Assembly (NCBI GenBank): GCA_019338205.1
Contig: GCA_019338205.1_4761.1
DNA length: 64,000 nucleotides
Strand: one strand, 5' to 3'
Source: a phage
Positions within the stretch are counted from its first letter, which is position 1. Each line of letters opens with the position of its first letter. A program made the position numbers and the translations under genes. The notes beneath the pieces were generated by a model that had not been told where the DNA came from, made no database searches, and worked only from the letters and a program-made list of their open reading frames with translations. This document shows positions 26,150-26,605 of this stretch, in pieces.

Positions 26150-26605
26150 ATGATTATTGATACTGTAAAGGGCGATCTCATCGCCCTGTTTAAACAAGGA
26201 AACGGTCATTTAATTCATGGTTGTAATTGTTTTCATACTATGGGCGCTGGTATTGCTGCAAAGATCGCGAAAGAGTTCCCGCAAGCGTTAGAGATTGACA
26301 AGCAAACTTCTCGCGGTAAGGTAGAAAAGCTGGGTGGGTTTAGTGTCTGGACGCATCAAGTTAATGGTTATAACTGGTGCGGGGTGAATCTCTATACCCA
26401 ATTCCGACCGGGCCCAAATGCTGAATATGGTGCTATCCTGAAAGGATTTGAGACTATCAATGATGTTTTTGAAGGTGCTATACAGCCTTTCTATATTCCT
26501 AAAATCGGTTGCGGTATCGGTGGCCTTGAGTGGGAATGTGTAGAAGAGATCATTAATATTGCTACTCCAGACATTAACATTGTGGTGGTTGAATATGACA
26601 AATAA
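26150..26605 (+). CDS. macro domain protein (ADP-ribose binding/hydrolase fold)
   Basis: GDLIA...HGCNC...MGAGIAAKI and IPKIGCGIGG match macro-domain signatures (compare YmdB VNAAN...GGGVDGAI and ISTGVYG). Confidence 0.65.
   Translation: MIIDTVKGDLIALFKQGNGHLIHGCNCFHTMGAGIAAKIAKEFPQALEIDKQTSRGKVEKLGGFSVWTHQVNGYNWCGVNLYTQFRPGPNAEYGAILKGFETINDVFEGAIQPFYIPKIGCGIGGLEWECVEEIINIATPDINIVVVEYDK

Follow-up and report, generated by a model that had tools for sequence, protein, structure and literature searches.

The window, i.e. the whole stretch of 64,000 nucleotides of phage DNA that was analysed, carries between the genes vs and tk a gene for a small macrodomain protein, whose position is given in Table 1 together with the surrounding features. 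The gene order regB–vs.1–vs–tk.4–three small ORFs–tk–rI, as established from annotations and from the ORFs of the window, is common to the window, to phage JSE and to phage T4. The initial annotation had located the gene between lysis-inhibition-like genes and tk. Upstream of it, however, lie vs.1 and vs, which are not lysis-inhibition genes, and rI is found beyond tk. The Shine-Dalgarno-like sequence GAGAGG starts 1 nt past the stop codon of vs. At its other end, tk.4 overlaps the next ORF (26595..26789), in an arrangement that is annotated in the same way in JSE, and this overlap suggests translational coupling in a vs–tk operon-like run. A scan of positions 24000-29000 returned 20 promoter candidates against 16.2±4.9 in shuffled sequence, and 5 terminator candidates against 3.3±1.7. 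Since neither count was above that of shuffled sequence, no claim about transcription units is drawn from the scan. No darT or other ADP-ribosylation gene adjoins tk.4, whose neighbours are vs.1, vs, the three small ORFs and tk. Likewise, the region of JSE equivalent to the window holds the usual early, replication and baseplate genes of T4-type phages, and no ADP-ribosyltransferase or DarT annotation was found there.

Table 1. Position in the window of tk.4, of neighbouring features and of the active-site motifs encoded by tk.4
Feature	Position	Strand	Description
vs.1	25177..25767		Upstream of tk.4; SLT-like secreted protein
vs	25775..26134		Directly upstream of tk.4
GAGAGG, Shine-Dalgarno-like	26136..26141	+	Read from the sequence; 8 nt 5' of the tk.4 ATG
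tk.4 / adfM orthologue	26150..26605, stop codon included	+	ATG..TAA ORF, 151 aa, stand-alone macrodomain protein
H23-G-C-N26-C27	26216..26230	+	G24 and N26 invariant; H23 in 101/105
M31-G-A-G-I-A36, Gly-rich loop 1	26240..26257	+	M31, G34 and A36 invariant
N80-L-Y-T-Q84, strand end	26387..26401	+	HMMER and hhalign alignments
P117-K-I-G-C-G-I-G-G125, Gly-rich loop 2	26498..26524	+	P117, G120 and G122 invariant; G125 in 101/105
Overlap of tk.4 with the next ORF (26595..26789)	26595..26605	+	11 nt; sequence and translation
rI	27954..28256		Downstream of tk, on the far side from tk.4

The gene is orthologous to T4 tk.4, now also called adfM, and represents its Krischvirus version. Across the 2.9-kb neighbourhood of tk.4, the window is 98-99.6% identical to the RB49/Phi1/JSE-like coliphages of the genus Krischvirus (Straboviridae). 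The encoded protein is 100% identical to JSE Tk.4 (YP_002922165.1), the two genes differing by 3 synonymous codons. It aligns over its full length with T4 Tk.4, with 44% identity and 65% positives over 150 residues (E=9e-45). The two proteins share the HGCNC, MG(A/S)G and NLYTQF motifs as well as the position of their genes between vs and tk, although the window protein is closer to rV5-like homologues (67-69% identity) than to its T4 counterpart. Its annotation in JSE and Phi1 is tk.4, 'phosphatase; contains A1pp phosphatase motif', and the A1pp/macro assignment of the tk.4 orthologues, that of RB49 included, was published in 2006 (PMC1524935). The gene and its annotation are already known, as is what its T4 orthologue does, and the window itself reveals nothing new. 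The initial annotation did not recognise tk.4 as a gene that was already named and annotated.

The ORF encodes a macrodomain, well beyond what chance could produce, and the proposal of such a domain in the initial annotation was correct. The Pfam model PF01661 (Macro) is matched over its full length (model positions 1-118 of 118) with 28.7 bits for a gathering score of 22 (E=1.3e-6), and PHROG 335 is matched with E=1e-61. [quoted passage not shown] An AlphaFold2 model, computed from an alignment of 104 homologues from which the T4 sequence was left out, displays the three-layer alpha/beta/alpha macro fold (mean pLDDT 97.2, pTM 0.91). Its best Foldseek matches are TARG1, Poa1p, DarG, BT1257 and SCO6735, with TM scores of about 0.7-0.8 (7e-11 and TM 0.77-0.78 for TARG1). 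The motifs from which the domain had been recognised, GDLIA (residues 8-12), HGCNC (23-27), MGAGIAAKI (31-39) and IPKIGCGIGG (116-125), fall on invariant or near-invariant columns of a family alignment of 105 sequences. They had been compared with those of YmdB-type proteins. The correspondence of the Asn motif and of Gly-rich loops 1 and 2 is valid, but the class is another one: the window protein belongs to the ALC1/TARG1/DarG-like class and not to the YmdB/MacroD class, because its neighbours in PDB sequence searches and in Foldseek are members of the former.

The family is widespread in phages. Homologues were identified by tblastn in 2,732 phage records spanning Straboviridae, rV5-like, Felix-O1-like, Ackermannviridae, Pseudomonas PAK_P1-like and Vibrio phages, and 1,349 clusters (50% identity) were retrieved at E<=1e-30 when the family profile was run against 1.84 billion cluster representatives. 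A bacterial family member from Pelagimonas is an orphan, no DarT being found in its neighbourhood. Some family members, in virus-like contigs, are fused to NADAR and to DUF4326. [quoted passage not shown]

DarTG systems block phages through DNA ADP-ribosylation, and phages counter them with 'orphan antitoxins'. T4 deleted for both adfA and adfN (AdfN being 30.3) is still resistant to DarTG2, from which a further anti-DarT factor was predicted (PMC11825919). The gene tk.4 was the single DarTG2-specific hit of a HIDEN-SEQ transposon screen in T4, and a clean T4 tk.4 knockout was sensitised to DarTG2, one DarTG2 system having been used (bioRxiv 10.1101/2025.11.20.689424). The gene was renamed adfM, for anti-DarT factor Macrodomain, and to the authors of this preprint it 'seems likely', by inference only, that ADP-ribose is taken off DNA enzymatically (bioRxiv 10.1101/2025.11.20.689424). 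The chimallivirus macrodomain PhiKZ gp104, also named AdfM, strips DarT2 marks from DNA both in vitro and in vivo (PMC13309987). The macrodomain SCO6735 cleaves thymidine-linked ADPr off DarT-modified ssDNA and rescues Escherichia coli from DarT (PMC9411070). The reversal of host DarT-type ADP-ribosylation, one of the roles put forward in the initial annotation, is supported by the DarTG2 sensitivity of the T4 knockout. The window gene is the RB49/JSE-lineage copy of this anti-DarTG2 factor, which helps to explain the DarTG2 resistance of T4-like phages. These phages serve as therapeutic candidates, and tk.4 bears on their DarTG2 resistance. From these homologues we infer that the window protein shares both the anti-DarTG2 role and the thymidine-ADPr hydrolase activity.

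The names under which the family is found in databases, 'phosphatase / A1pp motif' in RefSeq and PHROG and 'O-acetyl-ADP-ribose deacetylase' for JGI homologues, would rather designate a small soluble ADP-ribose derivative as the substrate. Such a substrate could be ADP-ribose-1''-phosphate, as in a Poa1p-like enzyme, O-acetyl-ADP-ribose or an ADPR-derived immune signal, the last of which was also among the options of the initial annotation, and the protein would then clean up RNA-repair by-products or blunt NAD+/ADPR defences such as Thoeris. These labels are however transfers of domain names and not the outcome of assays. This holds for the phosphatase label that connects the window protein to yeast Poa1p, the likeness between the two being one of fold. 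Iyer et al. argued that soluble ADPr derivatives are the usual targets of phage Macro and NADAR domains (PMC9503650), but their analysis predates the reports that AdfN (PMC11825919) and PhiKZ AdfM (PMC13309987) act on DNA adducts. One fused homologue weakly matches the ThsA_Macro model; on the other hand, no Tpt1/KptA or 2H gene that could be a source of Appr>p was found near tk.4, in the neighbourhood in the window or its JSE equivalent, and the phenotype of the T4 orthologue is specific to DarTG2 (bioRxiv 10.1101/2025.11.20.689424). A soluble main substrate is considered distinctly improbable.

The removal of DarT2 marks from DNA can be confronted with the residues of the active site. The family alignment comprises 105 members including T4, which are 38-83% identical to the window protein. 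Residues G24, N26, M31, G34, A36, D50, N80, Y82, P117, G120 and G122 are invariant (105/105), and H23, C27, T83, Q84, G125 and W128 are near-invariant. Gly-rich loop 1, which is the phosphate or distal-ribose binding loop of macrodomains, aligns with MGAGIA of TARG1 and MGKGIA of DarG. In Gly-rich loop 2, aligned to MPRIGCGLDR of TARG1, G125 takes the place of the catalytic D125 of TARG1. N26 aligns with N22 of DarG, N27 of SCO6735 and N23 of PhiKZ AdfM, and the equivalent Asn is required for activity in SCO6735 and DarG (PMC9411070) and in PhiKZ AdfM (PMC13309987). According to HMMER and hhalign, Q84 aligns with the catalytic Lys of DarG (K80), TARG1 (K84) and PhiKZ AdfM (K78), and with the essential Gln85 of SCO6735, N26 being matched to N27 in the same alignments. 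A Gln is present at position 84 in 104 of the 105 aligned members, and it follows N-x-Y-T/S in 246 of the 248 motif matches found among 257 collected homologues. A naive MAFFT alignment of seven sequences with PDB fragments shifted the NxYTQ strand, whereas HMMER and hhalign agree with each other; for this reason, the residue equivalences rest on the HMMER/hhalign profiles and on the position of Q84 at the end of strand 74-84 of the model. N26 and the two Gly-rich loops form the predicted ADP-ribose-binding pattern of the window protein.

The best PDB matches of the family profile are BT1257 (1e-16) and SCO6735 (7e-15), both of which have Gln at this column, within N-M-I-G-Q-H. In SCO6735, the substitutions Q85A and Q85E abolish activity and N27S nearly does so; the proposed mechanism is water-mediated, the Asn locking the Gln, which in turn positions the substrate (PMC9411070). 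The SCO6735/BT1257 subclass is defined by a mobile loop that is 5 residues longer than that of DarG and TARG1 and contains Lys89 and Lys93, and the high activity of SCO6735 on DNA was credited to this loop. When the Tk.4 profile is aligned to SCO6735 or BT1257, a gap of 5-6 residues appears at this mobile loop, right after T-Q-F-x-P, whereas no gap occurs at the same position in alignments with DarG or TARG1. Judged by the alignment of Q84 and by this gap, the Tk.4 family combines a Gln centre of the SCO6735 type with a loop of DarG/TARG1 length.

The characterized relatives differ from Tk.4 in several respects. DarG models were the sole matches of the window protein in PADLOC and NCBIfam, and they were matched over the N-terminal macro part only (positions 2-141 of 329-338). 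The PADLOC DarG model gives 50.8 bits for the window protein, 36 for T4 Tk.4 and 132.9 for PhiKZ AdfM, and NCBIfam NF048014 (DarG) gives 48.4 bits for the window protein against an equivalog cut-off of 250. DarG (PDB 5M3I, 5M3E, 7OMU) and Tk.4 have in common the conserved Asn, the Gly loops, the Gly at the position of TARG1 D125 and presumably the same substrate, but K80 of DarG is a Gln in Tk.4 and the DarT-binding C-terminal domain exists only in DarG. An identification of the window protein as a DarG antitoxin was rejected: the catalytic Lys and the C-terminal domain are missing, darT does not adjoin the gene, and the score falls far short of the cut-off. With human TARG1/OARD1, the window protein shares 28-30% identity and the MGAGIA and P-[KR]-I-G-C-G loops, but the catalytic dyad K84/D125 is replaced by Q84/G125. 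SCO6735 (Streptomyces coelicolor, PDB 5E3B) and BT1257 (2FG1) resemble Tk.4 by the Gln at the catalytic-Lys position, by the His and the Asn, and as stand-alone 'orphan' proteins without a DarT partner. Their identity to the window protein is nevertheless only about 21-25%, and N-x-Y-T-Q-F in Tk.4 stands against N-M-I-G-Q-H. Contrary to SCO6735, Tk.4 is phage-borne and is devoid of the longer mobile loop with its two Lys, and the acidic window protein (pI 5.3) differs from the SCO6735 fragment (pI about 9.6). Acidity might seem to speak against DNA binding, but this argument was dropped because PhiKZ AdfM, a proven DNA de-ADP-ribosylase, is equally acidic.

PhiKZ AdfM bears the same name as T4 Tk.4. 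Like Tk.4, it is a phage-encoded stand-alone macrodomain directed against DarTG2, with the same proposed role. It is however only 26% identical to the window protein, possesses a DarG-like F-P-T-K with Lys78 and is imported into the phage nucleus (PMC13309987). Its score with the DarG model, its low identity and its Lys78 place the two 'AdfM' proteins in different subgroups. T4 Tk.4 and PhiKZ gp104 are likely independent acquisitions and, with a Gln instead of the Lys in Tk.4, they probably use different chemistry.

Overall, it is likely that Tk.4 is a glycohydrolase of the orphan-antitoxin type, which removes the ADP-ribose installed by DarT2 on thymidine in ssDNA through Gln/Asn-assisted, lysine-independent catalysis. 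During infection, the protein would be produced from the run of genes regB–vs.1–vs–tk.4–tk, which all point in the same direction, and it would bind the ADP-ribose placed by the host DarT2 on thymidine N3 in single-stranded, replicating phage DNA. Hydrolysis of the bond between ribose and base would regenerate unmodified DNA, and replication and packaging could proceed in DarTG2-carrying hosts, Tk.4 acting as an 'orphan antitoxin'. Catalysis would probably follow the route of SCO6735 and not the lysine route of DarG and TARG1: Q84, held by N26, would position the distal ribose and the substrate, and a water molecule would perform the chemistry. Several observations count against this scheme. 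The catalytic Lys of DarG and TARG1 is absent (Q84), as is the mobile loop of SCO6735; the tested T4 protein and the window protein share only 44% identity; and no darT is adjacent.

The absence of the canonical catalytic Lys could also be understood if protection by Tk.4 were mainly non-catalytic. The protein would then bind and inhibit DarT2 directly, as an antitoxin mimic modelled on AdfA/AdfB or on the C-terminal domain of DarG, or act as an ADP-ribose reader or shield. Direct inhibition is the mode of action of AdfA and AdfB (PMC11481870; PMC13309987), and the dead variants SCO6735 Q85A, DarG K80A and TARG1 K84A inhibit DarT in vitro, most strongly in the case of SCO6735 (PMC9411070). As inactive SCO6735 inhibits DarT by binding, protection need not be purely catalytic. 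A mainly non-catalytic role is nonetheless very improbable for Tk.4. The window protein does not have the DarT-binding C-terminal domain of DarG, and its homologues are found in phages that infect many hosts, whose DarT proteins differ greatly. Moreover, the catalytic-type Asn, Gln and Gly loops vary little or not at all among over 100 diverged homologues, and their conservation in such diverse phages argues for an enzyme and not for a toxin-specific binder.

An enzymatic function leaves the choice of the substrate to be considered. The initial annotation had mentioned the tuning of phage Alt/Mod-type modifications. Alt and Mod modify arginine, and this linkage is normally removed by ARH/DraG-type enzymes and not by ALC1/TARG1-like macrodomains. 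A diverged alt gene is present in RB49-type phages, but tk.4 is also kept in RB43, which has no alt (PMC1524935). Many of the unrelated genera represented in the 2,732 phage records have no Alt/Mod, and such tuning is unlikely. The same arguments bear on a wider alternative, in which Tk.4 is an ADP-ribosylhydrolase whose main substrate is an ADP-ribosylated protein, with Glu/Asp-linked marks from host toxin ARTs or from phage Alt/Mod, or an ADP-ribosylated RNA, with for example uracil-N3 or phosphate-end ADPr. The protection of T4 against DarTG2 would in that case be a side activity or would be specific to T4. TARG1 and SCO6735 do act on protein-linked ADPr as well (PMC9411070), and uracil-ADPr on RNA is reversed by TARG1-like macrodomains including SCO6735 (PMC13036486). 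However, CmdT, an mRNA ADP-ribosyltransferase, strongly restricts T4 even though this phage carries tk.4 (PMC11618068). Phosphate-end ADPr is a substrate of TARG1, but SCO6735 showed no activity towards 2'-OH RNA ADPr or, in one assay, towards 5'-phosphate ADPr (PMC11833690). In T4, tk.4 came out of the transposon screen as the single hit specific to DarTG2 (bioRxiv 10.1101/2025.11.20.689424). Another macromolecular main substrate than DarT2-modified DNA is on these grounds improbable.

Within the de-ADP-ribosylation of nucleic acids, the residues of the family may further set Tk.4 apart. It is possible, albeit tentative, that Tk.4-type proteins form, next to DarG and SCO6735, a mechanistic subtype of their own, the third among the ALC1/TARG1-like nucleic-acid de-ADP-ribosylases. 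This subtype may be defined by H-G-C-N-C, N-x-Y-T-Q, the invariant and family-specific Asp50 and the short loop. Its chemistry may be particular to it, or its specificity may be broader, covering thymidine-ADPr on DNA together with uracil-ADPr on RNA, or other DarT variants. Similarly, the diverged Krischvirus/rV5-type allele may extend coverage to DarT2 variants beyond the reach of the T4 allele. The lysine-less, short-loop active site is the only addition to the literature, and it offers in N26 and Q84 a clear target for mutagenesis.

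By alignment, Asp50 is a family-specific invariant residue of the Tk.4 family. It was found in all 105 members of the family alignment A1, whereas the Mtb DarG protein carries a tyrosine at the position aligned opposite to it. Two unrelated groups named distinct phage macrodomains AdfM, one of them T4 Tk.4 and the other PhiKZ gp104. T4 Tk.4 is of the Gln-type while PhiKZ gp104 is of the Lys-type and DarG-like, and the latter shares only 26% identity with the Krischvirus Tk.4 of the window. This nomenclature clash could misdirect annotation transfer.

The homologues of Krischvirus Tk.4 found in rV5-like phages were 67-69% identical to it. 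They come from MaxTheCat, from Bas59 EduardKellenberger and from a phage whose record bears the name 'Campylobacter phage A135'. The Campylobacter label of this last record looks doubtful. In contrast, the T4/T2-type Tk.4 proteins shared only 44-50% identity with the Krischvirus protein. Its closer relationship to the rV5-like homologues suggests that tk.4 was exchanged between phage lineages. Tk.4-type macrodomains were also identified in fusion with NADAR and/or DUF4326 (homologue matches P0197, P0198, P0250 and P0155, and the metagenomic locus L009), both the HGCNC and the NAYTQF motifs being kept. These fusions are located in metagenomic contigs that look virus-like and are mostly composed of ORFans. 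With a Tk.4-type/NADAR fusion, a single protein could reverse both thymidine-ADPr and guanosine-ADPr.

The coordinates of the features are collected in the following table.

Location of the features in the window and in related loci
Feature	Coordinates	Remark
vs.1	window 25177..25767	N-terminus hydrophobic, signal-peptide-like
vs	window 25775..26134	N-terminus hydrophobic, signal-peptide-like
T4 vs	T4 locus 6387-6734	N-terminus hydrophobic, signal-peptide-like: MTKILVLCIGLISFSASASA...
Tk.4 Asp50	window 26297..26299	
Small ORF 1	window 26595..26789	Cys-rich, CxxC pairs; zinc ribbon-like
Small ORF 2	window 26786..27004	Cys-rich, CxxC pairs; zinc ribbon-like
Small ORF 3	window 26997..27290	Resembles a small membrane protein
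Long ORF	window 40485..42347	Single ORF, 620 aa; positional comparison with JSE
Long ORF	window 57820..60528	Single ORF, 902 aa; positional comparison with JSE
Tk.4-type fusion	L009 6001-7419	

The initial annotation placed lysis-inhibition-like genes upstream of the macrodomain gene. These genes are actually vs.1 and vs, and the label was probably prompted by their signal-peptide-like N-termini. According to its annotation, Vs modifies valyl-tRNA synthetase, a cytoplasmic enzyme, and a signal-peptide-like start is odd for such a protein. In minimal medium, vs showed the strongest depletion among T4 genes (HIDEN-SEQ preprint, bioRxiv 10.1101/2025.11.20.689424).

The two long ORFs are each a single ORF in the window. 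In the JSE record, the place matching the 902-aa ORF shows a DNA polymerase annotated as two CDS, and the place matching the 620-aa ORF shows an nrdD split around a homing endonuclease. Compared by position only, the window phage may be devoid of these interruptions.

Between tk.4 and tk, the three small ORFs occupy the same place as tk.3, tk.2 and tk.1 of T4. Each overlaps its neighbour by a few bases and they are therefore, judging from this arrangement, probably translationally coupled.
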